Origin: Gemmatimonadota bacterium
Lineage (GTDB): Bacteria; Gemmatimonadota; Gemmatimonadetes; Gemmatimonadales; GWC2-71-9
Assembly (NCBI GenBank): GCA_043751835.1
Contig: JAYUZK010000009.1
Coordinates: 1 to 32,768, forward strand
Direction of reading: 5' to 3'
Length of the DNA stretch: 32,768 bases
In this document: piece after piece, positions 1,374-20,650 of the stretch
Numbering within the stretch: the first letter of the stretch is position 1
How the letters are laid out: every line of letters begins with the position of its first letter
Notes under the pieces: generated by a model
Told to the model about the DNA's origin: nothing
The model's input: the letters and a program-made list of their open reading frames with translations, nothing else
Databases searched by the model: none
Position numbers and translations under genes: made by a program

Positions 1374-2870
1374 CTACCGGGGCAACCGCACGAGCCGGGT
1401 GCCCTCGAACCGCAGCGCCTCGACGGTGCCGCCGGCGCCGATCTCGAAGGTGACCAGGGCGGTTCCCTGCCAGAGGTTGTCCCAGTGGGCCCGGAAGGTA
1501 TCGAGATGCCAGTGCTCCAGTGTGGCGTGGATCTGGGAACTCTGGCGGAGCCCGAGGACGCCATGGTCCTCCGTGATCTCGATTCGCCCGATCAGGGAGT
1601 CCGCATAGGTGCCGGTGTAGGCGCCAAGCGGCAGCGACGGCTTGGTGCCCGTAATCCGCTGCCGCTCCTCCTGCGCTCGGGCGCTGTCGGACTGGGCGTT
1701 CAATTCGCGATAGAGTCCCAGCAATTCCGTGCTCCAGTCCCGCTCCGGGACTCCGAGCCAGGTGTCGAAGGCCCGGTACATGAGGGCATGCCGGGCTTCG
1801 ACGTGGTCGAGATTGGCCAGGACATACACGCCGAGACGCTGCTCAGGAATCAGGCCGATGATCGCCACCATGCCGTCGATGCTGCCGGTATGGAACTGGA
1901 CCATCTGGCCCCGATAGTCCTGCTGGAACCACCCCATGCCATAGGTCTTCCAGTGCGGCTTGGTGAGCCGCTGGGATGGATAGAACTCGGAATTCGGGAC
2001 CATGGTCTGCGGCTTGAACAGCTCGGCCCAGGTCGCCGGCTGGAGCAAGGGCCGGCCGTCGACCCGGCCCGAATCGATCATGAAGCCGGCCCATTTTGCC
2101 ATGTCCGTCACGCTTGACCAGATCGAACCCGCGGGGGCGACGGGATCGACGGCTGCGTTGCTGATCACGCGGGGGACGCCGCCGATCCGGAAATGGGGTG
2201 AGGCCACGTTTGGTTTCCCAGCCGTTCCGGCAAGGGTAGCCACCGTTCCGGTCATGCCAAGCGGCCCGAAGATCCGGGTCTCGATGAACCGTTCCCATGA
2301 CATGCCGCTCGCGGCGGCGACCACGGCGCCGGCCGTCGCGTACATGATGTTCTGATAGATGAACCCCGACCGGAAGGAGTAGGCCATCGGAATGAACCGG
2401 GCCCGGCGGAGCACCTCGGCCGAGGCGTTGTCGTTGCGGTACCAGAGGACATCTCCGTTGGCCAATCCGGCCCGGTGGGTGAGGAGATCCCGTACCGTCA
2501 CCTCCCGGGTGACGTAAGGATCACCGAGCTCGAAGCCGGGCAGATACTTCGTCACCGGGTCGTCCCACCGGACCTTCCCCTCGTCCACCAGCATGCCGAT
2601 CGCGGCGGCGGTCATTGCCTTGGTGGTCGACCCGATGGCAAAAAGCGTGTTGGCGTCCGCGGTCTCGAGCTTGCCGAGTTCGCGGAGCCCGTAGCCCTTG
2701 GCGAAAACGGTCTTGCCATCCTTCACTACCGCGACGGCAAGGCCGACGGCGCCCCAATCCTTGACCGCCTGGGCGGTGTAGGCGTCGAATGCGGCCACCT
2801 TGGGGTCTGGGGTCTGAGCGGCGGCGGCGGCGGCCGTCCCGAGGAGGAGGAGGGCAAGAAGCGTTTTCAT
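1374..2870 (-). CDS. Secreted serine hydrolase, beta-lactamase/PBP-like family with C-terminal beta-sandwich extension
   Basis: ORF 1374..2909 (-). The likely start is MKTLLALLLLGTAAAAAAQ (signal peptide). An SxxK motif is present (GSTTKAMTAAAIG), and the length and composition fit class-C-like esterases/peptidases. Confidence 0.85.
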   Translation of the reverse strand: MKTLLALLLLGTAAAAAAQTPDPKVAAFDAYTAQAVKDWGAVGLAVAVVKDGKTVFAKGYGLRELGKLETADANTLFAIGSTTKAMTAAAIGMLVDEGKVRWDDPVTKYLPGFELGDPYVTREVTVRDLLTHRAGLANGDVLWYRNDNASAEVLRRARFIPMAYSFRSGFIYQNIMYATAGAVVAAASGMSWERFIETRIFGPLGMTGTVATLAGTAGKPNVASPHFRIGGVPRVISNAAVDPVAPAGSIWSSVTDMAKWAGFMIDSGRVDGRPLLQPATWAELFKPQTMVPNSEFYPSQRLTKPHWKTYGMGWFQQDYRGQMVQFHTGSIDGMVAIIGLIPEQRLGVYVLANLDHVEARHALMYRAFDTWLGVPERDWSTELLGLYRELNAQSDSARAQEERQRITGTKPSLPLGAYTGTYADSLIGRIEITEDHGVLGLRQSSQIHATLEHWHLDTFRAHWDNLWQGTALVTFEIGAGGTVEALRFEGTRLVRLPR

Positions 2871-2981
2871 GGGCTGGCCGATTGAAGGAGTTTCGGGGGA
2901 CCAGACCAAACCTAAGCGTGGCCGTTGCGGTCATCGCTCAGTGGGCTAGCTTCCCTCTGCCCTCACAAAATACTTCGGCCA

Positions 2982-4244
2982 ATGCCCAAACGTCTCGGAG
3001 TCGGTTTCATCGGCAGCGGGTTCAACGCTCGCTTCCACATGCTCTCCTGGCAGGGAGTCCGCGATGCGGACGTCCTTGGCGTCTGGAGTCCCAACCGCAA
3101 GAATGCCGACAGCGCGGCCCGGTACGCCCGGTCGCTCGATGTCGGCGAATGCCGTCCTTACCGGTCCATCGCCGAGATGGTGGCCGATCCGCGGATCGAC
3201 GCGATCTGGCTGTCGGGCCCGAATCAGGCCCGGATCGAGAACGTCGAGGAGATGGTCGATCCGATTCTTCGGGGACGAGCCGAACTGATCGGCGTCGCCT
3301 GCGAAAAGCCGTTGGCCCGCAATGTCGCCGAGGCAACCGAGGTGACCTCGCTGGTCAAGCGGGCCGGCCTCATGCACGGCTACCTCGAGAACCAATGCTT
3401 TTCCCCGCAGGTCGAACGGGGCCGGGAGTTGCTGTGGGCACGGGGTGCCGCGCTGACCGGCCGACCGTACCTCGCCCGAGCGGCGGAAGAGCACAGCGGA
3501 CCCCATATGCCCTGGTTCTGGCAGGGCAAGCTGCAGGGCGGCGGGGTCCTCAACGACATGATGTGTCACTCGGCGTTGGTCGTTCGCCATCTGCTCACCA
3601 AACCCGGCGACGATGTCAGTACGGTCCGTCCGGTGCGCATCACGGGGCATGTGGCGAGTCTCAAATGGACTCGGCCGGAGTACGCCCGCCGCCTGACGAA
3701 GGCGATGGGGCCCGAGGTGAACTACGCCCGGACGCCATCCGAGGACTTTGCCAGTGTGATGATCGAGTTCGAAACCGCGGACGGCTACCGGGTGTTTGGC
3801 GAAGCGACCACGTCGTGGAGCTTTGTCGGGGCGGGCCTCAGGCTCTCGGCCGAGCTGCTGGGTCCTGAGTACTCGATGTCGTGGAATACGCTCGACAGCG
3901 GCCTCAAGCTGTTCTTCAGCCGGGAGGTGCAGGGTCGAGCCGGTGAGGATCTGGTGGAAAAGCAGAACGCGGAAATTGGTTTGATGCCGGTGGTGGCACA
4001 GGAGGCGGTCGCCTACGGTTACGAGGGCGAGAACCGGCATTTCGTCCGGGCGTTTCTTGGCAAGGAAAAGCCCATGCTGACCTTCGATCACGGGCTTGAT
4101 GTCGTCCGTGTGCTGATGACGGCCTATCAGAGTGCCGAGCAGGGACGGACGGTAGAATTTCCGCCGCCCGGGATCGGCAAGTTCGTGCCCGACGTCGCCA
4201 AGCGAGGCGCGAAGCTCCCGAGGGCACGCACCAGGAAGAGTTGA
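2982..4244 (+). CDS. Gfo/Idh/MocA family oxidoreductase (cytoplasmic)
   Basis: ORF 2925..4244 (+). The start is chosen at MPKRLGVGFIGSGFNARFH, where the Rossmann GxGxxA/G motif lies directly at the N-terminus. The CEKPLA motif is typical of the family. There is no signal peptide. Confidence 0.85.
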   Translation: MPKRLGVGFIGSGFNARFHMLSWQGVRDADVLGVWSPNRKNADSAARYARSLDVGECRPYRSIAEMVADPRIDAIWLSGPNQARIENVEEMVDPILRGRAELIGVACEKPLARNVAEATEVTSLVKRAGLMHGYLENQCFSPQVERGRELLWARGAALTGRPYLARAAEEHSGPHMPWFWQGKLQGGGVLNDMMCHSALVVRHLLTKPGDDVSTVRPVRITGHVASLKWTRPEYARRLTKAMGPEVNYARTPSEDFASVMIEFETADGYRVFGEATTSWSFVGAGLRLSAELLGPEYSMSWNTLDSGLKLFFSREVQGRAGEDLVEKQNAEIGLMPVVAQEAVAYGYEGENRHFVRAFLGKEKPMLTFDHGLDVVRVLMTAYQSAEQGRTVEFPPPGIGKFVPDVAKRGAKLPRARTRKS

Positions 4245-4284
4245 CGTGGTCCCCACACCCCGGAGGTCGGCGGTGACTGGCAAG

Positions 4285-5541
4285 ATGGGACGCCTTTCGG
4301 TCATGATGTTTCTCCAGTATGCCGTCTGGGGCGCCTGGCTTCCCCTGGCCGGTCGCTATCTCTCCGCTCCGGCGGCGACGGGCGGGCTGGGCTTCACGGG
4401 CGGTCAGATCGGGCTCATCCTCGGCCTCGCGGGATCGATCGGCGCCATTGCCTCCCCGTTCATCGCCGGACAGTTGGCTGACCGGTATTTCAGCACCGAG
4501 CGGTTTCTCGCCTCGCTGCTGGTGGTCGGCGGGGTCATCAAATGGGTGACCGCCGGGCAGACCGGGTACCCGGCGTGGCTGCTTCTGTCGATCCTCTACG
4601 GCGTCGTCTACATGCCCACGCTCGCCCTCTCCAATTCAATGGCGTTTGCCCACCTCGACAAACGGGATCAGCAGTTCCCGAAGGTCCGGGTCTGGGGCAC
4701 GATCGGCTGGATCGCCGTGAGCTGGATCTTTCCGATGCTGTACCTTCAAACCCACCTCCACTTCCAGTGGATGCCGCCGTTTCTGGTCGGCCCCGAAAAA
4801 GCCAACGTGACGGCTCACTTGGCGGACTCGCTGCGGTTTTCAGCCGTGATTTCATGGGGCTACGCGATGTTCTGCCTGTTCCTTCCGCATACGCCGCCCA
4901 AGCGCGATGCCGTCGAAAAGCTCGCTTTCGTCAAAGCCTTCCGGCTCCTCAAGGAACCATCGTTCGCGGTCCTGGTGGCGGCCAGTCTGCCGATCAGCAT
5001 CATTCACCAGATCTATTTCATTCAGACGCCTCCGTTCCTGTCCCACCTTGGGCTGCTGGACAGCCAGATCGGACCGGCGATGACGATCGGCCAGTTCAGC
5101 GAAATCGCTATCATGGCGATGCTGGGCTGGATGCTGGTCCGCTTCGGGTTCCGGACCGTCATCACTCTTGGCGCGTTCGCCTATTTCGTTCGTTATTTCC
5201 TCTGGAGCCTTCCGGGACTGCCCCCCTCGGTTCAGGTGGCGACCCAGGCGCTCCACGGGATCTGCTACGCCTGCTTCTTCGCCGGTGGTTTCATCTATGC
5301 CGACCGGGTCGCGCCGGCTGACATCCGCCACTCGGTACAGACCGTCTTCGGTATTGTCATCCTTGGCGGCGGACCGGTGCTCGGCGGCATTTTGTCCGGG
5401 TGGCTGGCCGATCATTACGCTGCCTCGGCTGGCGGGGTCGACTTTGCCGCACTGTGGAGGGTCACAGCCATGATCGGTCTCGCCACGGCCGTCCTGTTCT
5501 ATCTCTTCTTCCGCGAGCGCCGCGCGGAGACCGCGACATAG
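4285..5541 (+). CDS. MFS transporter, nucleoside:H+ symporter (NHS)-like family
   Basis: ORF 4246..5541 (+). The ATG at 4285 gives MGRLSVMMFLQYAVWGAWLPLAGRYL, which matches the NupG/XapB-type N-terminus (xxLKxxSFLQYxxWGSWL). The protein is hydrophobic throughout, with about 12 predicted TM segments. Confidence 0.85.
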   Translation: MGRLSVMMFLQYAVWGAWLPLAGRYLSAPAATGGLGFTGGQIGLILGLAGSIGAIASPFIAGQLADRYFSTERFLASLLVVGGVIKWVTAGQTGYPAWLLLSILYGVVYMPTLALSNSMAFAHLDKRDQQFPKVRVWGTIGWIAVSWIFPMLYLQTHLHFQWMPPFLVGPEKANVTAHLADSLRFSAVISWGYAMFCLFLPHTPPKRDAVEKLAFVKAFRLLKEPSFAVLVAASLPISIIHQIYFIQTPPFLSHLGLLDSQIGPAMTIGQFSEIAIMAMLGWMLVRFGFRTVITLGAFAYFVRYFLWSLPGLPPSVQVATQALHGICYACFFAGGFIYADRVAPADIRHSVQTVFGIVILGGGPVLGGILSGWLADHYAASAGGVDFAALWRVTAMIGLATAVLFYLFFRERRAETAT

Positions 5542-5576: not shown

Positions 5577-7796
5577 ATGCCGGTGCCTAACCTCTGCTGG
5601 TGGCTCAAAATCGTCCGGGGTCTCCGGGCCAATTCTCCGGTCGGCCTCTGGCTGGCCGGCGCGGCGTTGCCGCTCGCCGCCGGACGACCGCTGACGGCCC
5701 AGATCCAATCCGGCACCTTGGTCGTTACGGTGCGGCGGGAGGATTCGACCCTGCTGCGGGGCGCGTTTGTTCGCGCCGATCGGATCGGTGCCACGACCGA
5801 CGCCGCGGGGTTGGCCCGCCTCGAACTCCCGGCCCGGTTGGTAACCATCGCGGTCTCCCATCCTGGATATGTGCCCCGGGTTTTTGAAATCACGATCCTG
5901 CCGGCGCTGTCCCAACGGTTCGATCTCTTGCTGGAACGGGAAACCGCCGCAACGCGACGGGTCTACACCGGCCGAACCATCGACAGCGCCGGCGGGTCGC
6001 CGCGTCAGGTCCAAACCCTCGGCTCAGATGATCTCGACCTCGGCACCCAGATCCACCCCACTGATCTCACCCGTCTTATCCCGGCCGAATGGGGAGTTCG
6101 AGCCCAGCAGCAATCCGGGTCGCTCGATGGTACCCGGCTCCGCCTTGGAGGTTTGAGAGGTCAGTACACCGGAATCCTGGTCGACGGCTTGCCACTGCTG
6201 GGCCAGCAGCCGGGGGCGTTCGGCGCCCTGCATCTCGCCCCGTTCGAGTTCAGTCAAGCGGAACTGCTGTCGGGCGCGGCTGGAGCCATCTACGGGCCCG
6301 GGGCGGCCGCGGGGGTCATTAACCTCATTTCTCGTCGCCCGGAGCGCGATCAGGCCCGCCTCGGGATCAACCAGTCCTCGGAAAAGGGCGGGGACGTGAT
6401 GTTTTGGGGGGGCCGGCGTCAGTCGGCGACCGTGAGCGGATCATTGACCGCGAGTCTGCACCAGCAGCGCCTCGTCGATTCCGATGATGACGGCTGGGGC
6501 GAGTTTCCGAGAGCTATCAGCGTGGCGGTTCGGCCCCGCGTCTTCATCGAGCGCCCGAACGGTGATGCCCTGACCGGGACGGTTGGCTTCCTCTCGGAGG
6601 AGCGAGCCGGCGGCTATATCTCGACCAGCAATGGTGCCGATCTGTATCGAGAGGGGCGGCAGACGCAGCAAGCCGACGGTGCCGTGACGGCTTCGAAGAA
6701 CCTCGGCGGCGGCGCCACGCTTCGGTTCAACCTGACCACTGTGTTTCAGACCAACACGCACAAATTCGATGAGCGCCGGGAACGGGACCGCCGCGAGATG
6801 GTGGCGGGAGATGTCGCGTTGCTTCGTCCGATGGGGCCGGGACTCCTGGTCTTCGGCATCGGTTACTGGCATGACGCGTTCCGCGAACGCGATCTCCCCC
6901 TCTTCGACTATACGGCCAGCGTTCCCGGCGTGTTCGCCGAGCTTTCGGCCCCGCTTGGGGAACGAGTTCGTGCCGTGGTGGCGGGCCGGTGCGACCAGCA
7001 CAACGTGCACGGCCTGCAGTGCGTTCCTCGGCTTGATCTGCGGTATCGATCGGCGGCCGGGATCGATGTCTCGGCGTACGGCGGCCTCAGCTATACCTCG
7101 CCGATTCCGCTGACCGACGAGGTCGAGACCCTTGGCCTCGCTGGAACCGCTCCAGTCGGTCTCAAGGCCGAGCGGCTCGGCTCGGCGGGCTTCGTGGTGG
7201 AGCGTCAGTCCAGGCGATGGGACATCCGGATCGCCACGGGCTATGACCGGATCGGCCTTCCGCTTCGCCTGGTCCCTCTCGCCGGCGACCCGGCGAGCCG
7301 GCTTCGGTTGCTCAACGTGCTGGAGCCGACGCGGGTCTTTTCGGCCTCGCTGGTGGTCGGCTACCGTTCGGGCCGCGTCTCGGTCCGATCGTTCTACCGA
7401 TTTCAGGACGCCACCGAAGGAGTTCCGGAATCGGCCGGGCGGCGCCAGTCTGACCTGACGCCTCGCCACCAACTCGGCGCCACGCTCAACTGGCGTGCCC
7501 CGACCGGCGCGGGTACCGAGATCCAGGTCGAGGGGATCTACGTTGGTAGACAGGCCCTCACCGACAATCCATTTCGGGCTTATTCGCCTGTCTACTCGCT
7601 TGGGAACGCACTGATTTCGCAGCGGTCGGGGCGGGCTCGGATCTATCTCAGCGCGGAAAATCTGTTCGACAAGAAGCTGCGAGCGTACGAGCCCGTGGTA
7701 TTTCCGGTCCCAGGGCTTGCTGGTCGCCGCACAGCCTCGCCGTGGGTGCCCGTTCGGGGACGGGAGATCAGTCTCGGCGCAATAGTTGACTGGTAG
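5577..7796 (+). CDS. TonB-dependent outer-membrane receptor with N-terminal carboxypeptidase-regulatory-like domain
   Basis: ORF 5400..7796 (+). The start is trimmed to MPVPNL..., after the MFS stop, followed by signal-like LWLAGAALPLAAGRPLTAQ. Plug-like motifs are LRLGGLRGQYTGILVDGLPL and GAAAGVINLISRRP. A long beta-barrel-like region follows, with a C-terminal aromatic residue (..AIVDW). Confidence 0.75.
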   Translation: MPVPNLCWWLKIVRGLRANSPVGLWLAGAALPLAAGRPLTAQIQSGTLVVTVRREDSTLLRGAFVRADRIGATTDAAGLARLELPARLVTIAVSHPGYVPRVFEITILPALSQRFDLLLERETAATRRVYTGRTIDSAGGSPRQVQTLGSDDLDLGTQIHPTDLTRLIPAEWGVRAQQQSGSLDGTRLRLGGLRGQYTGILVDGLPLLGQQPGAFGALHLAPFEFSQAELLSGAAGAIYGPGAAAGVINLISRRPERDQARLGINQSSEKGGDVMFWGGRRQSATVSGSLTASLHQQRLVDSDDDGWGEFPRAISVAVRPRVFIERPNGDALTGTVGFLSEERAGGYISTSNGADLYREGRQTQQADGAVTASKNLGGGATLRFNLTTVFQTNTHKFDERRERDRREMVAGDVALLRPMGPGLLVFGIGYWHDAFRERDLPLFDYTASVPGVFAELSAPLGERVRAVVAGRCDQHNVHGLQCVPRLDLRYRSAAGIDVSAYGGLSYTSPIPLTDEVETLGLAGTAPVGLKAERLGSAGFVVERQSRRWDIRIATGYDRIGLPLRLVPLAGDPASRLRLLNVLEPTRVFSASLVVGYRSGRVSVRSFYRFQDATEGVPESAGRRQSDLTPRHQLGATLNWRAPTGAGTEIQVEGIYVGRQALTDNPFRAYSPVYSLGNALISQRSGRARIYLSAENLFDKKLRAYEPVVFPVPGLAGRRTASPWVPVRGREISLGAIVDW

Positions 7797-7805
7797 ACGT
7801 CCTTC

Positions 7806-9776
<1,971 letters not shown>

Positions 9777-9815
9777 GGACGGCAGCGATGAATCTCATGC
9801 CCGGGGTTGGGCCGG

Positions 9816-11831
9816 TCAAGGACGACGGCGCTTGGCGACCTCCTTCTTGGCGTCTTCGTGGCCCTGCACGGCGGCACGATCCAGCCACTGAAGTCCGACC
9901 TCTTCGTCTTTGGCCAGACCGCCCCGGCCCCGGATGTACATCATGCCAAACTGATATTCGGCTCCCGGGTGGCCCTGTTCGGCAGCCTTGCTGAACCATT
10001 TCGCCGCTTCCTGCTCGTTCTTCTCGACACCGCGCCCGCGGGTGAACATCTCGCCGAGGTTGTACTGGGCCGCCCGGTTACCCGCTTCGGCAGCGCGGCG
10101 ATACCAATTGGCGGCGTCCTGATCGCTCCGCTTGGTGCCAAGACCCTGTTCGAATCGTTCCGCCAACAGGGGCCAGGCCTCTTCGACACCGCCCTCGGCC
10201 GCCTTGCGAATGAGGGCGGTCGCCTCAACGTCGTTCTGCGTGATACCGGTGCCGGTGGCGTACATCACGCCCAGGCGGAAGGTGGACTGACCGTCGCCCC
10301 CGGCAGCGGCCTTCCGATACCAGACCGCCGCCGCTGAATCCGAGCGATCGACTCCGGTGCCTTTCTGATACAGGATCGCCAGGGCCCGGCTGGCCGCCGC
10401 GCTGCCCCGATCGCCCTCCGCTCCGCACAACTTGACCGCTTCGGTCCATTTCCGGGCCGAGATGGCGATCTGGCAATTGAGGGCGGCCAACGTCGGTTCC
10501 GGCTTGGCCGCGGTCGTTGAGGCGGGCGCATCCGACTTCTTCGGGGGCGCCTTCGGAACCGCGACCGTCGGGCCAGGCGGCGGAACCACGGGTGGGCCGG
10601 GCGTGGGTCCGGCCGGGACGACGGCGCTGGGCTGCGGGGGTATGGGCGCCGGGATGGCGGTCGCCGGTCCGCCGGCGCGGTTTCGGCTCACCAGGATGGC
10701 GATGACCACGACTCCGACGGCCCCGGCCAGCGGAAGGAAGCGTCCCCCCTTTTTGGGCTCGGCCGGCCGGTCATTGGCCGCGGTCGGCCGGGGCACCGGG
10801 GCGGTGACCATCTCTGTCACCGTCGCGCCTAACGGAAGCGTGTCGGGGCCCGAAATGGCTTCGGCGAACGCCGCCATCGACGGGAACCGTTCCTTGGGAT
10901 CCTTCGCGAGCGCGCGGTCGACGGCGAACGCAACCGGGGCTGGCACGTCGGGCACCAGGTCGCGGAGACTCTTGGGGACACCGACCATCTGCTGGAACAG
11001 AACCGCCCGGGTCGACTCCCCGTCGAAGGGCAGCGAACCGGTGATCATCTGGAACCCCACCACAGCCAGCGAGTACTGATCGCTTCGATGGTCGAGATGG
11101 GTGTCGCCCGCCGCCTGCTCGGGACTCATGTAGTGAGGCGTGCCGACCAGCATGCCGGTACTCGTAAGGCCTGGCGTGGAGTCGCTGGTATCAATGGCTT
11201 TGGCGATTCCGAAATCCATCAGCTGGACCCGTCGCCCCTTGCCCTCGAGCATGATGTTTTCGGGCTTGATGTCCCGGTGCACGACGCCCGCTTCGTGGGC
11301 GGCCTCGAGGGCGTCAGCGGCTTCGAGCAGAATGCGGCCGGCTTCGCGGGCCGGTCGCGGTCCCTCCCGATGAAGGAGGGCGCGGAGGCTCTCGCCCTGG
11401 ATCAACGGCATCAGGATGTAGGCGATTCCAGCGGCCTCGCCAATGTCGTAGATCGGGACAATGTGGGGATGGCGAAGGGCCGCGACCGTTTCGGCCTCGC
11501 GCCGAAACCGGGTGAGGAGCTGCTCCGACAACATCAGGTCCGGCCGGAGGGCCTTGAGAGCGAGGTCCCGTTTGAGGCGCTTGTCGTGCACCAGAAAGAC
11601 CTCGGCGAAGCCGCCCCGTCCGATCAGCTTGCCGAGCTCGTAGTTCCCGCCGAGGGCCTGCTGAAGCCGAGCCTTGTCGGAGGTGGCAACCCGATCTGCG
11701 TTGTAAGTCTTGATCTCACCCGTATTCTTGTCGATGGCCTGCGGCGTTTGGGTGCCGCACATCATGCAGAAGGCGGCCTCCATCGGCAGGGGATGGGCGC
11801 ACGAAGGACAGGTCTTGGCGGTCGCTGACAC
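9816..11831 (-). CDS. Ser/Thr protein kinase paralog: zinc ribbon + Hanks kinase + TM + Sel1-repeat ectodomain
   Basis: Zinc ribbon CPSCAHPLPMEAAFCMMCG. Kinase motifs are GRGGFAEV, ALKAL, HRDIKPEN, DFG and SPEQ. A TM segment (FLPLAGAVGVVVIAILV) and a Pro-rich linker follow. There are at least 4 Sel1-like repeats (AAVWYRKAAAGGD, AANWYRRAAEAGN, AAKWFSKAAEQGH, GLQWLDRAAVQGH). Confidence 0.9.
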   Translation of the reverse strand: MSATAKTCPSCAHPLPMEAAFCMMCGTQTPQAIDKNTGEIKTYNADRVATSDKARLQQALGGNYELGKLIGRGGFAEVFLVHDKRLKRDLALKALRPDLMLSEQLLTRFRREAETVAALRHPHIVPIYDIGEAAGIAYILMPLIQGESLRALLHREGPRPAREAGRILLEAADALEAAHEAGVVHRDIKPENIMLEGKGRRVQLMDFGIAKAIDTSDSTPGLTSTGMLVGTPHYMSPEQAAGDTHLDHRSDQYSLAVVGFQMITGSLPFDGESTRAVLFQQMVGVPKSLRDLVPDVPAPVAFAVDRALAKDPKERFPSMAAFAEAISGPDTLPLGATVTEMVTAPVPRPTAANDRPAEPKKGGRFLPLAGAVGVVVIAILVSRNRAGGPATAIPAPIPPQPSAVVPAGPTPGPPVVPPPGPTVAVPKAPPKKSDAPASTTAAKPEPTLAALNCQIAISARKWTEAVKLCGAEGDRGSAAASRALAILYQKGTGVDRSDSAAAVWYRKAAAGGDGQSTFRLGVMYATGTGITQNDVEATALIRKAAEGGVEEAWPLLAERFEQGLGTKRSDQDAANWYRRAAEAGNRAAQYNLGEMFTRGRGVEKNEQEAAKWFSKAAEQGHPGAEYQFGMMYIRGRGGLAKDEEVGLQWLDRAAVQGHEDAKKEVAKRRRP

Positions 11832-14838: not shown

Positions 14839-16653
14839 ATGGCGATACCCCGGCGCGTCCTCGGTTTGATCGGGCTCACCCTGAGCCTCGGCTGTGGCAA
14901 ACCCGAAGCGGCCGGAACCCTCATCAACATGACCGACAACCAGTTCAGCGGCTCGGTGGCCAGGGTCCCGGTTGGAACCCGGGTCACGTTCCTGAACGGC
15001 GGGCGGAGCGTCCACAACGCGACCGCCGTTGACGGCAGCTGGAAGAGCGGCGACGTTGCGGCTCACTCTTCCGGGGGAGGGCGCGGCGGCGACGTCGTGT
15101 TCGATAAGCCCGGCGTCTACAAATACTATTGCATTTATCACGGCACCAAAGACGGCCGGGGGATGGCCGGGGTCGTGGTCGTTGGCGGCGCGAGCTATAG
15201 CCCGAGCGCCCGGGGGGCCATCGCCGCGGTCGACAGCGCGACGGGCGTCGTGCGCCGCGTGCCGGCTGCGTATCCCACGATTCAGGCGGCGGTGGATGCC
15301 GCCGCCCCCGGCGACCTGGTCCTCGTCGACCGGGGCGTCTACCGGGAGGAGGTCACGGTCACCACCCCCTCGCTGGTAATCCGGGGTGTTGATCGCAACG
15401 AGACCATCATCGACGGCGAGTTCGTGCGGGGCAATGGAATTACGGTGCTTGCCGACGCGGTGGCCGTCGAGAACATGACCGCCCGGAACGCCCTCCTCAA
15501 CGGCTTCTTCTGGACCGGCGTTACGGGCTTCCGCGGCTCCTACCTCACCGCCTACAACAACGGAGACTACGGCATTTACGCCTTCGGCGCGAAGGACGGG
15601 GTGTTCGAAGACTCGTATGCGTCGGGTTCGCCGGACTCCGGTTTCTACATCGGCCAGTGCTATCCCTGCCGGATCGTGATCCGCCACGTTGTAGCCGAGC
15701 GCAACGGGCTCGGCTTTTCGGGCACGAACGCGGGCGGGCAACTCTATCTTGTGAGCTCGGTCTGGCGGAACAACCGGGCCGGCATCGTGCCGTCGTCGCT
15801 CGACATCGAGCTCGATCCACCCCAGCGCGACGCTGTGTTCGCGGCCAACCTCGTGATCGACAACAACAATGCCGCGGCGCCGGCGATCCCGATCAATTCG
15901 GTGGCGTTCGGGAATGGCATCCTGCTGGCGGGATCGGTACGGGACACCGTCGTTCGCAACGTGGTGCTCGATCACGCCGGCCACGGGATCGTGACGAGTC
16001 CGCTGCAGGATCGCAATTATTACCCGGCCATCGACAACGTGATCCGGGACAATATCGTGCTGGGATCGGGGCGGGCCGACCTTGCCAACGCCGGGCCCGG
16101 TGAGTCCGGTAACTGTTTCTCGGGCAACGAGCACCGCACCGCGATTCCGTTCGGACTCGAGGCCGCTCGCGGCTGCCTCGGGCTTCGGATGCCATGGTGG
16201 TCCGATTGGGTCCCGTTCGGAACGGTGTTCGTCCGGGCGCTCCAACTCGGCGAGTCGTTTCCTGACTGGAAGACCCAGCCAGCCCCGCCGCCCCAGCCGG
16301 GCATGGAGACGCCGGAGGCCGCGCCGGTCCGGATCGCGAGCCACGTCTTCGAGACACTTCATTTTGATCTCGCCGCGGCAACATTGCCGGCTGGCACCGA
16401 TTCGATCGTGGCGGCCTGGCGGGGTGGTGTGATCGGCCGAGACCGGACGCCGGGATGGTTCGGCCGGATCGGAGCCAACGCCGCGTTCCTCATCGGCCCG
16501 CTGGTGGTGTTCTGGTGGCTGATGCGGGTCCTTCGATCGAGGAAAGTGCCCGCGGAACGGGTCTGGCGGCGCCGTCTGGCAACCCTGGCGACCGGCCTGA
16601 TCGCCTGGGTCGCGGTGGTCGGGCTCAGCATCTGGTACTACAGCCGGATCTGA
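14839..16653 (+). CDS. Membrane-anchored cupredoxin + right-handed parallel beta-helix (NosD-like) protein
   Basis: ORF 14650..16653 (+), trimmed to MAIPRRVLGLIGLTLSLGCGK (signal peptide with a possible lipobox). The cupredoxin domain has type-1 Cu ligand spacing (SVHNAT ... YYCIYHGTKDGRGM). The NosD-type beta-helix begins PTIQAAVDAAAPGDLVLVDRGVYREEVTVTTPSLVIRG, followed by repeated N/G-rich turns. Two C-terminal TM helices are separated by an Arg-rich loop. Confidence 0.8.
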   Translation: MAIPRRVLGLIGLTLSLGCGKPEAAGTLINMTDNQFSGSVARVPVGTRVTFLNGGRSVHNATAVDGSWKSGDVAAHSSGGGRGGDVVFDKPGVYKYYCIYHGTKDGRGMAGVVVVGGASYSPSARGAIAAVDSATGVVRRVPAAYPTIQAAVDAAAPGDLVLVDRGVYREEVTVTTPSLVIRGVDRNETIIDGEFVRGNGITVLADAVAVENMTARNALLNGFFWTGVTGFRGSYLTAYNNGDYGIYAFGAKDGVFEDSYASGSPDSGFYIGQCYPCRIVIRHVVAERNGLGFSGTNAGGQLYLVSSVWRNNRAGIVPSSLDIELDPPQRDAVFAANLVIDNNNAAAPAIPINSVAFGNGILLAGSVRDTVVRNVVLDHAGHGIVTSPLQDRNYYPAIDNVIRDNIVLGSGRADLANAGPGESGNCFSGNEHRTAIPFGLEAARGCLGLRMPWWSDWVPFGTVFVRALQLGESFPDWKTQPAPPPQPGMETPEAAPVRIASHVFETLHFDLAAATLPAGTDSIVAAWRGGVIGRDRTPGWFGRIGANAAFLIGPLVVFWWLMRVLRSRKVPAERVWRRRLATLATGLIAWVAVVGLSIWYYSRI

Positions 16654-16656
16654 ACC

Positions 16657-17640
16657 GTGCTGCTCACGCGTCGAGATCTCGTACTCCTGGGCGGCGGCGT
16701 GACGGCTGGCGCCGGAGCCCTGCTTGGTCGCGACGCCTGGCTCGCCCGGGCTCAGGCTACCTCCGGGCTCGTCCCACCGAGGCCGACGGCACAGCGCTAT
16801 GGACACGGCGCCATGCCTCCGAACGAACTCGGACCGCTCAGCCTGGACCAGGCCACCCGGCCCTCAAAACCCGATCCCCGGTCCGGTCGGACGACCCGGC
16901 GAATCATCCTCGAAGTGGTCGACCAAACCGTCGGGATCTCGGTCGATCGGAGCTTCGACGCCTGGACTTTCGGCGGAACCGTTCCCGGCCCGACGTTGCG
17001 CGCCAACGAGGGGGATGCGCTCGAGATCACGCTGCGGAATCGAACCGGCCACGCCCACAACCTCCATTTTCACGGCAACCACGAGATCGAGGCGGACGGC
17101 TGGGAGCCCGTTCCCCCGGGCGGCGAGGCCGTGTATCGGTTGACGGCGGGTCCCTTCGGCGTGCATCCCTACCATTGTGATTTCACTCCCAGCGAAGATC
17201 ACATCGCCAACGGCCTCTATGGGCTGCTGATCGTCGATCCGCCAGAGTCCCGGCAACCGGCTGAGGAAGTGGTACTCGTGCTCTGCGGGTTCGATGTTGA
17301 CGGCGACGGAAACAGCGACCTGTTCGGCTGGAACGGACCGACCGGTTTCTACGCCAAGTACCCCATCAAGGTCGAGTCTGGCCGACTCGTCCGGGCGTAC
17401 GTCGCCAATTTCGTCGCCGATGTGCCGGTGGCGTCATTCCATCTTCACGCCCAGATGTTCGACGTCTACCGGAACGGCACTCGGCGCGAACCCGACGAAC
17501 GCACCGATGTGCTTTCCCTCGCCCCGGCTGAGCGGGCCATGATCGAATTCCGCCTGCCCCGGCGAGGGCGCTACATGTTCCACCCCCATCAGCGATTTCT
17601 GGCGGAACACGGCGCCATGGGTTGGTTCAGCGCCGTCTGA
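16657..17640 (+). CDS. TAT-exported two-domain cupredoxin protein, NirK / two-domain multicopper oxidase-like
   Basis: GTG start 3 nt after the upstream stop. Twin-arginine signal MLLTRRDLVLLGGG. Motifs are FGGTVPGPTLRANEGDALEITLRN, HNLHFHG, HPYHCD...DHIANGLYGLLIVDP, FHLHAQ and YMFHPHQRFLAEHGA. Confidence 0.85.
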   Translation: MLLTRRDLVLLGGGVTAGAGALLGRDAWLARAQATSGLVPPRPTAQRYGHGAMPPNELGPLSLDQATRPSKPDPRSGRTTRRIILEVVDQTVGISVDRSFDAWTFGGTVPGPTLRANEGDALEITLRNRTGHAHNLHFHGNHEIEADGWEPVPPGGEAVYRLTAGPFGVHPYHCDFTPSEDHIANGLYGLLIVDPPESRQPAEEVVLVLCGFDVDGDGNSDLFGWNGPTGFYAKYPIKVESGRLVRAYVANFVADVPVASFHLHAQMFDVYRNGTRREPDERTDVLSLAPAERAMIEFRLPRRGRYMFHPHQRFLAEHGAMGWFSAV

Positions 17641-17765: not shown

Positions 17766-18128
17766 ATGCGCCGTTCGATCTTGGTCGTGAGTTCGCTGTT
17801 GCTGATGGCTGCTTGTGGAGCCAGCACTCCAGATCCCATTTCTCCGCCGCCGCCCCCCCCGCCCCCCCCGCCGGCAAACTCCGTGTTGGTGAGTTCGAAC
17901 CAGTTTTCTCCGGCGCAACTGACGACCAGCAGCGGCTCGACCGTCACTTGGACTTGGCAGGGCGGTATCCACAACCTGACGTTTGAGGACAACGTGGGCA
18001 ATGCCGCTGACATGACCAGCGGCACCCACGCCCGCACGTTCAACGCCGCCGCCACGTTCCGATATCGTTGTACCAACCACTCCTCGAACTTTACCAGCGG
18101 GATGAGCGGATCGGTTGTGGTGCAGTAG
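17766..18128 (+). CDS. Blue-copper (cupredoxin) lipoprotein with polyproline tether
   Basis: ORF 17622..18128 (+), trimmed to the ATG at 17766, which is preceded by a strong Shine-Dalgarno sequence (AAAGGAGGA, 17752-17760). Signal plus lipobox MRRSILVVSSLLLMAAC. Ten consecutive Pro residues. Type-1 Cu ligands are IHNLTF ... YRCTNHSSNFTSGM, the same C-x2-H-x7-M spacing as the cupredoxin domain of the 14839 gene. Confidence 0.85.
   Translation: MRRSILVVSSLLLMAACGASTPDPISPPPPPPPPPPANSVLVSSNQFSPAQLTTSSGSTVTWTWQGGIHNLTFEDNVGNAADMTSGTHARTFNAAATFRYRCTNHSSNFTSGMSGSVVVQ
17844..17873 (+). repeat. Poly-proline coding tract containing two C8 homopolymer runs
   Basis: Read directly: ccg ccg ccg ccc ccc ccg ccc ccc ccg ccg. 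The C8 runs are at 17853-17860 and 17862-17869, separated by a single G. Confidence 0.9.
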
Positions 18129-18200: not shown

Positions 18201-19691
18201 CTAATAGCGGTAGTGATCCGGCTTGTAGGGCCCCTGGGGCTTCACTCCGATGTAAGCCGCCTGTTCGGCGGTCAACCGGGTCAACTTCGCGCCAAGCTTG
18301 TCGAGGTGGAGGCGCGCCACCTTCTCGTCGAGGTGCTTGGGCAGGACGTACACCTGCTTCCCGTACTGGCCGGCGTTCAGGTGCAGCTCGAGCTGGGCCA
18401 TCACCTGATTGGTGAAGCTCGCTGACATCACGAAGCTGGGATGTCCGGTAGCGCAACCGAGATTCAGCAGCCTGCCCTCGGCCAGAATCATCACGCTGTG
18501 CCCATCCGGGAACACCCACTCGTCGTACTGTGGTTTGATGTTGATCCGCTTGATCCCCTTGATCTTCTTGAGGCCGGCCATGTCGATCTCGTTGTCGAAA
18601 TGGCCGATGTTCCCGACGATGGCCTTGTCCTTCATCCGCGCCATGTGATCGGCGGTGATGATGTTGAAGTTGCCGGTCGCCGTGATGAAAATGTCGGCCG
18701 AGGAGATCACGTCCTCGATCGTCAGCACCTGATACCCTTCCATCGCCGCCTGAAGCGCGCAGATCGGGTCGATTTCTGTCACCACCACCCTCGCGCCCTG
18801 GCCGCGAAGGGCCTGCGCGCACCCTTTGCCGACCTCGCCGAACCCGAAGACAACAGTGAGCTTGCCGGAGATCATGACGTCACTGGCCCGGTTGAGTCCA
18901 TCGATGACTGAGTGCCGGCATCCGTAGATGTTGTCGAATTTCGACTTGGTAACCGAGTCGTTGACGTTGATCGCCGGGAACAACAGGGTTCCCGCCTTCA
19001 TCATCTCGTAGAGCCGGTGGACGCCTGTGGTCGTCTCCTCGGAGACACCCCGAATGTCCGCCGCGACCTTGGTCCATCGTCCCGGGTTTTTCTTGGCCTC
19101 GGCTCGCAGCAGGTCGAGGATGACCCCCCATTCCTCCGGGTCGCTCTCGGGTTTGAAGGCCGGAATGGCGCCCGCCTTCTCGTATTCAGCGCCCTTGTGC
19201 ACGAGCATGGTCGCGTCCCCGCCGTCGTCGAGCAGCAGGTTCGGCCCCGAGCCGTCAGGCCACATCATCGCCTGCTCCGTGCACCACCAGTACTCCTCGA
19301 GGGTTTCGCCCTTCCAGGCGTACACCGGCGTCCCTCTCGGATGGTCAGGGGTGCCGTTTCTGCCAACGACCGCGGCGGCTGCCGCATGATCCTGAGTCGA
19401 GAAGATGTTGCAGGACACCCAGCGGACGTCGGCGCCGAGCTCGGTCAGGGTCTCGATCAGGACGGCCGTTTGCACGGTCATGTGCAGCGATCCCATGACC
19501 CGGGCACCGGCCAGCGGCTTCGTGTCCCGGTGCTCGGCCCGAATTGCCATCAGGCCCGGCATTTCCTGCTCCGCCAGACGGATTTCCTTGCGACCAAACT
19601 CGGCCTCGCCAAGGTCACGGACCTTGAACGGGGGCCGACCGGCGGTCTTGGCGGCGTCGAAGGGGTGCAGGTCCAGCGCGGTGGTTGCCAC
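18201..19691 (-). CDS. ahcY: Adenosylhomocysteinase (S-adenosyl-L-homocysteine hydrolase), long form
   Basis: The 496-aa protein is unmistakable: [58 protein letters not shown] (NAD site), HFDNEID and the C-terminal YRY. Confidence 0.95.
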
Positions 19692-19693
19692 GA

Positions 19694-20650
19694 TCAGGTT
19701 CTCCCGGTGAGTGAGTTTTTCTTGGCCGAGGCCACGAACAGCAGCGGCCCCTTGGCCGACGGCTGCGGCGGTAGTCCTCGGTATGCCCCTGTTTCAAGGC
19801 CAGCGTCTTCGAACCAGCGACCGATCGTTTCCGCCTCGAAGCCAAGCCACTGATGCCCAACAGTCTCACGATAATCAGTGTGCTCGTGCGGCATCATATC
19901 GGCGACGATCAGGCGGCCTCGCGGTTTGAGCGCTCGACTCGCCTCGCGGATGGCGAGCGCCGGCTCGGCGAGGTGGTGGAGTACCAGCACGATCAGGGCG
20001 AGATCGAGCGACCCGGTCTCGATCGGCAGGGTTTCGAGCGTTCCAAGGCGGAGTTCGATGTTGGCACAGTGGTCGAGCCGCTGACGAGCGGCCGCGAGCA
20101 TCGCCGGCGATTCGTCAACCGCGATGACCCGTGCCACAAACGGCGCGAGGCCGGCGGCCAGCTGTCCGGTGCCGGCACCCAGATCGCCGACCACCCAGTC
20201 GGGTTCGAGCAGGCCGCCCAGTGCCATCCAATTGATGGCGCTGCCGAAGAGTTCGACTCGGAGTCGGTCCCAGTCGCCGGCGCTCGTCGCGAAAAATTCC
20301 TGGCTTCGCGAGTGACGGCCGGAAAGGACAGCGCGGACTCGCTCGGCATCCCGCCGAGCCGCCGTACCACCCGCGAACTGGTTCCGAACGACATCCCAGA
20401 GCTGGCGAGCGTCAGGTTCGAGTGCGGTCGGGTTCAAGCGGTACCAATTGCTCGAGCCGTTCGCCCGGCTGGAGATCCAGCCGTCATCGCTGAGAACCCG
20501 GAGATGCCGGCTGACGGTCGATTGAGGAAGCTGGACGGCCTGACACAGTTCGTTGACCGCGAGCTCCTGGCTTTCCAACAGCAAAAGGAGCCGGCACCGG
20601 GTGGCGTCGGACAGGGCGCTGAGGCGGGAAAAAAGCGGCGCTGTTGTCAT
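19694..20650 (-). CDS. ArsR-family HTH regulator fused to a class I SAM-methyltransferase-fold domain (SahR-like)
   Basis: The N-terminal winged HTH ([44 protein letters not shown]) is ArsR type. The C-terminal domain carries methyltransferase motif [17 protein letters not shown]. Its stop codon lies 2 nt before the ahcY start. Confidence 0.8.

Follow-up and report, generated by a model that had tools for sequence, protein, structure and literature searches.

The open reading frame (ORF) at positions 16657-17640 on the + strand of contig JAYUZK010000009.1, from a Gemmatimonadota bacterium, encodes a two-domain multicopper oxidase (MCO) in which one of the eight histidines of the trinuclear copper cluster is replaced by an aspartate, Asp175. 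The window, i.e. the whole stretch of DNA that was analysed, is 32,768 nucleotides long. In the first-pass annotation the protein was described as NirK-like, with a metal ligand set lying between those of copper nitrite reductase and of two-domain MCOs. Neither the label nor the intermediate position holds, as both sequence and fold place the protein inside the two-domain MCO lineage, and we are highly confident that it belongs to this lineage and is not a NirK. Comparison of homologous sequences indicates that it is a derived two-domain MCO with a type 1 (T1) copper site in domain 1 only (type-C), and not an intermediate between families. The same comparison indicates that the change from His to Asp or Glu at position 175 is selected, derived and lineage-restricted in Gemmatimonadota. 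The unusual residue is solid; its functional consequence we infer.

To our knowledge, the eight-histidine trinuclear cluster is treated as an invariant signature of MCOs. The roles of the individual type 3 (T3) ligands are known mostly from engineered mutants. A natural and long-lived lineage with a carboxylate amounts to an evolutionary experiment on the asymmetry of the cluster, its redox potential and the two Cys-His paths, and a carboxylate at T3 might open the way to a different chemistry with O2 or small molecules.

The gene and its motifs lie in the window as follows:

16657-17640, + strand: two-domain multicopper oxidase, HCD variant, 327 aa; an ORF with a GTG start, assigned from Pfam, relatives in the PDB and an AlphaFold2 (AF2) model
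16657-16755, + strand: twin-arginine translocation (Tat) signal peptide, MLLTRRDLVLLGGG...ARAQA, read directly from the sequence, with a predicted cleavage site
17056-17073, + strand: domain-1 motif H134-N-L-H137-F-H139, the T1 His followed by an HxH pair of the trinuclear cluster
17173-17217, + strand: H173-C174-D175...H182...L187, the Cys-His diad, Asp in place of the second T3 His, the T1 His and the axial Leu
17440-17448, + strand: domain-2 pair H262-L-H264, with H262 aligned to NirK His255
17581-17589, + strand: domain-2 pair H309-P-H311, with H311 aligned to the NirK type 2 (T2) ligand His306

A motif search of the protein returns HAH at residues 132-134, HFH at 137-139, HCD at 173-175, HLH at 262-264 and HPH at 309-311. 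The HCD motif is encoded by CAT TGT GAT at 17173-17181, where D175 is the GAT at 17179-17181. The T1 ligands are H134, C174 and H182, and the axial position is taken by L187 at the expected spacing after the Cys. Pfam matches cover residues 100-197 (Cu-oxidase_3) and 224-324 (Cu-oxidase_2). The T1 Cys and His ligands are confined to domain 1 and the domain-2 motifs have no Cys, which is the type-C layout. The RR[D/E] of the Tat signal is kept across homologs, and the AF2 monomer has a pLDDT (predicted local distance difference test score) of 86. A sequencing error or a pseudogene is ruled out, as the identical protein is found on 24 contigs and the change is clade-wide.

To place the protein, the PDB was searched with the single sequence and with a profile, and the AF2 model was used for a structural search with Foldseek. 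The first match is 3GDC, an entry named "Multicopper oxidase", with E 3e-58 for the single sequence and 289 bits for the profile. In the profile search it is followed by 7RAB/7RAC, a dodecameric MCO from Marinithermus hydrothermalis (259 bits), and by 9CCK (200 bits), while the best NirK scores 135 bits. By sequence, profile and Foldseek alike, 3GDC, 7RAB and 9CCK outrank every NirK; in Foldseek 3GDC has a TM-score of 0.85 and comes before all NirKs. With the NirK equivalog TIGR02376 the protein scores 80.2 bits, where the cutoff is 296.3, and the match is limited to residues 75-199. The core of the protein, residues 76-327, aligns to the 288-residue chain of 3GDC, and NirK chains are about 20 residues longer over the same region, which broadly agrees with the earlier remark that the protein is shorter than NirK.

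The mature protein also has an N-terminal arm, residues 48-68 (16798-16860), with the conserved pattern Y48-G-H-x3-P54-P55...L63-D64. Y48 is near-invariant in HCD and HCH (His-Cys-His) groups alike, the pLDDT of the arm is 92-95 in the AF2 model, and the arm is missing from the aligned portion of 3GDC.

The profile alignment to the Geobacillus NirK 3X1E reproduces the residue mapping that had been made by eye. HSMDFH of NirK is aligned with HNLHFH, so that the catalytic Asp corresponds to H137 and the T2 ligand His100 to H139. YHCG is aligned with YHCD, so T2 His135 corresponds to H173. FHVVG is aligned with FHLHA, placing catalytic His255 at H262, and VTHQ with HPHQ, placing His306 at H311. 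The computed alignment contains no shift that would restore the Asp98/His255 pair or a full HCH. In the alignments with the solved MCOs, the HCH of 3GDC, 7RAB and 9CCK falls exactly on the HCD, and all eight cluster histidines of 9CCK align with H137, H139, H173, D175, H262, H264, H309 and H311. Seven of the eight histidines in the trinuclear set of a type-C MCO are present, and the second His of HCH is Asp175. The three HxH pairs (HFH, HLH, HPH) noted in the first-pass annotation are real and conserved, as is the replacement of HCH by HCD.

These relationships can be summarised by a ligand signature made of columns 134, 137, 139, 173, 174, 175, 182, 187, 262, 264, 309 and 311. It was read from an alignment of the query family, its 150 nearest representatives at 50% identity in a library of 1.84 billion proteins, and 3GDC, 7RAB and 9CCK. 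The MCO class, HHHHCHH[L/M]HHHH, contains 64 representatives and includes all three solved relatives. About 22 representatives have the NirK class signature, HDHHC[G/S/A]HMH[V/I][V/L/M]H, and eight have the query class signature, HHHHC[D/E]HLHHHH. The signature of the query itself, HHHHC[D]HLHHHH, would need a single change to match the MCO class and five to match the NirK class, the axial residue included, which argues against a ligand set between the two families. The V/I and V/L/M columns of the NirK class are H264 and H309 in the query, and the G/S/A column is D175. H134/C174/H182 and the T2-triad equivalents H139/H173/H311 are all present, but as MCOs and NirK have them in common, they do not tell the two families apart; the axial residue is Leu and not Met. 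This Leu is common to nearly the whole family, HCH members, 3GDC and 7RAB included.

Membership in NirK is rejected on three grounds: the hidden Markov model score, the residues at the catalytic positions and the signature of the ligands. Since the eight-histidine set that defines a canonical two-domain MCO was tested and is incomplete here, we do not file the protein as canonical either. The earlier statement that it belongs to neither canonical group is supported, with TIGR02376 below its cutoff and seven of the eight cluster histidines in place.

The replacement at position 175 is widely conserved. The query and its 120 nearest homologs (51-85% identity) comprise 98 sequences with D at this position, one with E and 22 with H. 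In the same 121 sequences H134, H137, H139, H173, C174, H182, H262, H264 and H311 are all invariant, L187 is kept in 120 and H309 in 119. This conservation, together with the motif search, supports the previous assignment of the T1 His/Cys/His ligands (H134, C174, H182) and of the axial Leu187.

The taxonomic distribution was studied by scanning one genome per GTDB species. A relative was found in more than 566 genomes, the best 80 were taken and 77 of these were classified. Among these 77, D or E is found in 20 of the 22 Gemmatimonadota loci (19 D and one E) and in no other group, while all 55 classified loci outside Gemmatimonadota have HCH. The HCH hosts include Acidimicrobiia, Nitriliruptoraceae, Caldilineaceae, Acidobacteriota, Leptospira and other spirochaetes, Myxococcota, Desulfobacterales and others. 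Asp is taken to be the derived state because all outgroups, i.e. these 55 loci as well as 3GDC, 7RAB and 9CCK, carry His. The MCO of the window is 84% identical to relatives in two Gemmatimonadota metagenome-assembled genomes (MAGs), and D or E is kept down to roughly 50-55% identity. In the genome loci the residue is encoded by GAC 16 times and by GAT three times (besides the GAT of the window), with a single GAG for Glu; the variation between GAC and GAT shows that the residue persists through synonymous change. At the level of the 150 representatives, HCH is found in 109, the NirK-type HC[G/S/A] in 23 and HCD in two, both from this family.

Four further positions change along with D175: Tyr to Phe at 105, T177, G224 and position 255. 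The last of these is Asp in 89% of the D/E sequences and in 0% of the HCH sequences, where it is Tyr in 35%. A compensating invariant extra His was sought in the alignment of MCO homologs and none was found. At H132, His and Arg occur about equally often, and at H50, in the conserved N-terminal Y-G-H motif, His is seen in 86 of the approximately 105-110 aligned D/E sequences versus 39 of 79 HCH sequences, i.e. it is enriched but not invariant. In the open-access library searched, no paper on an HCD multicopper oxidase was found. Nor did we find there a characterised HCD or HCE member with a defined activity.

The oxidase gene is accompanied by two genes for blue-copper proteins:

14839-16653, + strand: partner lipoprotein of 604 aa, in which an N-terminal T1 cupredoxin domain is followed by a right-handed beta-helix and, at the C-terminus, by two transmembrane helices (gene call)
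17766-18128, + strand: small lipoprotein cupredoxin of 120 aa, with a poly-Pro linker and His/Cys/His/Met T1 ligands (gene call)

Only 3 bases separate the stop codon of the partner from the start of the MCO. In the partner, Pfam identifies Copper-bind and Beta_helix as well as a weak NosD match. Across 22 homologs the T1 ligands H59/C98/H101/M109 do not vary, and the lipobox C19 and a CxxC pair in the beta-helix (C274/C277) vary little or not at all. The AF2 model of the partner has a pLDDT of 84.6, with the helices at residues 540-569 and 575-603. A homolog of the partner is located upstream of the MCO on the same strand in 79 of the 80 genome loci, in at least eight phyla. In Acidimicrobiia two neighbouring ORFs encode the cupredoxin and the beta-helix, in Gemmatimonadota the two are fused, and this pattern of fusion and fission supports a functional link.

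The partner family has more than 4,800 database relatives, for which the databases offer no name beyond "right-handed parallel beta-helix repeat-containing protein" or "plastocyanin"; it is uncharacterised and may be the more general discovery. The wider MCO family likewise comprises thousands of sequences in at least eight phyla, cultured Leptospira included, almost always together with a blue-copper/beta-helix lipoprotein. No characterised member of this wider MCO/beta-helix family was found, and no paper in the open-access library searched links a beta-helix protein to a two-domain MCO. Structurally, the beta-helix resembles alginate epimerases and lyases, i.e. polysaccharide enzymes, but the likeness is generic only (Foldseek E about 1e-6). 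In two Gemmatimonadales MAGs (loci L009 and L010, about 1810-5318) two tandem beta-helix paralogs precede the MCO; they are 63-65% and 49-50% identical to the partner of the window.

As a periplasmic right-handed beta-helix protein that is tied to a multicopper enzyme and has weak Pfam and NCBIfam NosD matches, the partner is reminiscent of NosD, which takes part in the maturation of nitrous oxide reductase. Unlike NosD, it has its own T1 cupredoxin domain and a membrane anchor, and no ATP-binding cassette (ABC) genes of the NosF/NosY type adjoin the partner gene. A NosD-like role is unsupported, as TIGR04247 gives 34.8 bits against a cutoff of 300 and NosD is outside the top 50 structural matches.

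The small cupredoxin also matches Copper-bind in Pfam, along with halocyanin, plastocyanin and amicyanin models, and is likely an electron carrier. It is found 3' of the MCO only in loci L005-L008, the closest Gemmatimonadota relatives. All-against-all clustering of the ORFs in 81 loci revealed no conserved neighbours beyond the pair of MCO and partner, only lineage-specific synteny, such as CoxG-like and Mog-like genes in Acidimicrobiia and SCO1 in Leptospira. A small PLDc_N-like membrane protein is encoded between partner and MCO in many loci outside Gemmatimonadota. As the pair otherwise stands alone amid unrelated neighbourhoods, it is a self-contained module. In Leptospira gomenensis (locus L070) this intervening protein, between the beta-helix gene and the MCO, has 104 aa, and a gene for a SCO1/SenC-like copper chaperone with a CPDMCP motif (6904-7527) lies directly 3' of the HCH-type MCO.

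No nitrogen-oxide genes were found near the MCO of the window, and neither efflux pumps nor metal regulators adjoin the genes of its family. In contrast, 3GDC-like relatives (40-45% identical) on Rhodococcus and Rubrobacter plasmids are found in metal-resistance islands with P-type ATPases and metal transporters, and have no beta-helix partner. Because its context differs from that of these plasmid relatives, the window family constitutes a distinct subfamily.

Among known systems, 3GDC, a structural-genomics entry from Arthrobacter sp. released in 2010, is the best match by both sequence and fold. It shares the compact two-cupredoxin core, the domain-1 T1 ligands, the axial Leu and the columns in which the HxH pairs stand. 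However, it has the canonical HCH, is about 39-45% identical to the query and lacks the query-family motifs YMFHPHQ...GAMGW and DGWEP. No paper on the activity of 3GDC was found. The second-best match, the Marinithermus enzyme MhMCO (7RAB), also has the two-domain layout, the axial Leu and the same ligand columns, but differs by its HCH, an inter-domain insertion and its assembly as a tetramer of trimers. Laccase activity of MhMCO was reported in 2021 work, as cited in PMC10673308.

The third solved relative, Nmar_1354 (9CCK, MCO4) from Nitrosopumilus maritimus, oxidises NH2OH to HNO while reducing O2 (PMC11761707). It is a homotrimer in which T1 is linked to an inter-subunit T2/T3 trinuclear site via Cys-His diads (PMC11761707). 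It shares with the query the two-domain MCO core, the domain-1 T1 site and cluster histidines on the same ligand columns, but is archaeal, only about 32% identical, has HCH and an axial Met, and carries an extra cupredoxin fused to its own C-terminus. This extra blue-copper domain is an electron relay and parallels the cupredoxin partners of the query. In the PDB sequence file the chains of 9CCK are named 'Copper-containing nitrite reductase', while the title of the entry and the paper describe a multicopper oxidase. The chain label could mislead homology-based annotation.

NirK itself (Geobacillus 3X1E/3WKQ, AniA 1KBV) resembles the query in the two-cupredoxin trimer architecture, as predicted for the query, in the His/Cys/His ligands of T1 and in three T2-ligand equivalents. 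The query is distinguished from it by His for the catalytic Asp, by the extra His264 and His309 together with Asp175, and by the axial Leu, i.e. at five of the 12 signature positions.

We lean, without strong conviction, towards an O2-reducing type-C two-domain MCO with a carboxylate-ligated cluster that is fed by its blue-copper partners. By analogy with the solved relatives and Nmar_1354, the Tat-exported enzyme would form a homotrimer, with a trinuclear copper cluster at each interface, where domain 1 of a subunit meets domain 2 of its neighbour. The T2 copper would be bound by H137 and H262, one T3 copper by H139, H173 and either H309 or H311, and the second T3 copper by D175, H264 and the remaining His of the H309/H311 pair. 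The carboxylate is probably a ligand of a retained T3 metal, since the other ligands are kept and Glu is an accepted substitute. Such a His2-carboxylate site would make the T3 pair more asymmetric and lower the potential of the copper it ligates, and D175 would close one of the two Cys-His routes by which electrons leave T1. With Leu187 in the axial position, T1 is predicted to be three-coordinate and of high potential, and could take electrons from ordinary cupredoxins, of which the operon has one or two copies. Most likely, electrons would enter T1 from the blue-copper domain of the translationally coupled partner and/or from the small downstream cupredoxin, and pass through the Cys-His diad to the inter-subunit cluster, where O2 would be reduced. 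The trimer, the copper occupancy, ligation by Asp, the electron donors and O2 as the acceptor are all elements that we infer.

Several observations weigh against this reading. Ligation by Asp is predicted from sequence comparison, and the carboxylate of D175 could instead face away from the metal, leaving a two-copper site. The assignment of ligands to each copper is modelled on canonical MCOs by homology. The partner may act in assembly, or as the subunit that binds the substrate, and not as the electron donor. In a Kimura-distance neighbour-joining tree, a crude method, the D/E sequences form four pure sub-clades of 47, 39, 20 and 8 and not one clean D/E clade, and 18 HCH sequences, from Myxococcota, "Deltaproteobacteria" and unassigned metagenome proteins, are nested within their common ancestor.

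The main rival explanation is that the copper on the D175 side is lost, or that Asp acts as a catalytic acid/base, so that a remodelled T2 and a single T3 site perform a different chemistry. Examples would be two-electron reduction of O2 to H2O2 and a redox reaction, in either direction, on a small substrate that contains nitrogen or sulphur. In NirK, a carboxylate beside the copper site positions and protonates the substrate, which provides a precedent. The four positions that change along with D175 suggest a wider remodelling, and the relative Nmar_1354 performs small-molecule nitrogen chemistry, NH2OH to HNO (PMC11761707). However, a lost copper would free H264 and H309/H311 to drift, and these are conserved in 121/121 and 119-121/121 sequences, respectively. 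The occasional Glu, too, is no harder to reconcile with a carboxylate that binds metal than with a catalytic acid in an exact position. We consider this explanation unlikely, though it deserves attention. Somewhat more doubtful is the proposal that the D/E site, unlike a conventional O2-reducing trinuclear copper cluster, is a natural metal centre of a new kind, either a copper cluster in which a carboxylate serves as bridge or ligand, or a mixed or two-metal site. It would be part of a conserved two-component periplasmic system of oxidase and blue-copper/beta-helix lipoprotein, perform a chemistry so far unassigned to MCOs, and have its genes miscounted as nirK in current metagenome surveys. 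It can be speculated that such a centre would, for example, turn over nitrogen oxides or a hydroxylamine-like substrate, or produce H2O2 in a controlled manner.

A role in copper homeostasis or resistance, as a CueO-like cuprous oxidase in which the change from His to Asp is neutral or near-neutral drift, is improbable. The 3GDC-like plasmid relatives in metal-resistance islands and the SCO1-like chaperone gene directly 3' at a Leptospira locus point in this direction. However, the context of the window family is different and very stable, with the beta-helix partner in 79/80 loci, and efflux pumps and metal regulators are not adjacent. Neutral drift is in addition an unlikely origin for D/E that is fixed in about 100 sequences and never in other phyla. 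It is highly improbable that the protein is a NirK of an unusual class that reduces nitrite at a mononuclear T2 copper on H139/H173/H311, with the extra histidines in the second sphere. The T1 ligands and the three T2-ligand equivalents are indeed present, NirK structures are among the significant matches, and 14 of the 120 nearest homologs carry the JGI label 'nitrite reductase (NO-forming)'. Yet TIGR02376 reaches 80 bits versus 296, His137 replaces the catalytic Asp, His264, His309 and the axial Leu are foreign to NirK, every relative closer than NirK is an MCO whose trinuclear cluster is complete, and no nitrogen-oxide genes are nearby. Finally, the one missing canonical ligand might suggest a decaying, non-catalytic homolog, a pseudo-enzyme like FtsP/SufI. 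This is hardly credible for a protein with 11 of 12 ligand positions invariant, an intact Tat signal, a mean column identity of 59% over 19 sequences and a co-conserved partner whose own T1 ligands are invariant.

Besides the 14 homologs labelled as nitrite reductases, about two dozen of the 120 are annotated as 'FtsP/CotA-like multicopper oxidase'. This inconsistent annotation could inflate the counts of nirK for Gemmatimonadota and other groups in nitrogen-cycle and metagenome surveys.

Elsewhere in the window, scans found no S-adenosylhomocysteine (SAH) riboswitch or other Rfam family and no tRNA. At 18201-20650 on the - strand, the gene for an SAH hydrolase starts 3 bases 3' of the gene for an ArsR/HTH_5-fused methyltransferase dependent on S-adenosylmethionine (SAM), and the two are likely co-transcribed. 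Also on the - strand, at about 7806-11783, are two tandem genes for Ser/Thr protein kinases, both about 650 aa long and ending in Sel1/TPR repeats on the C-terminal side.

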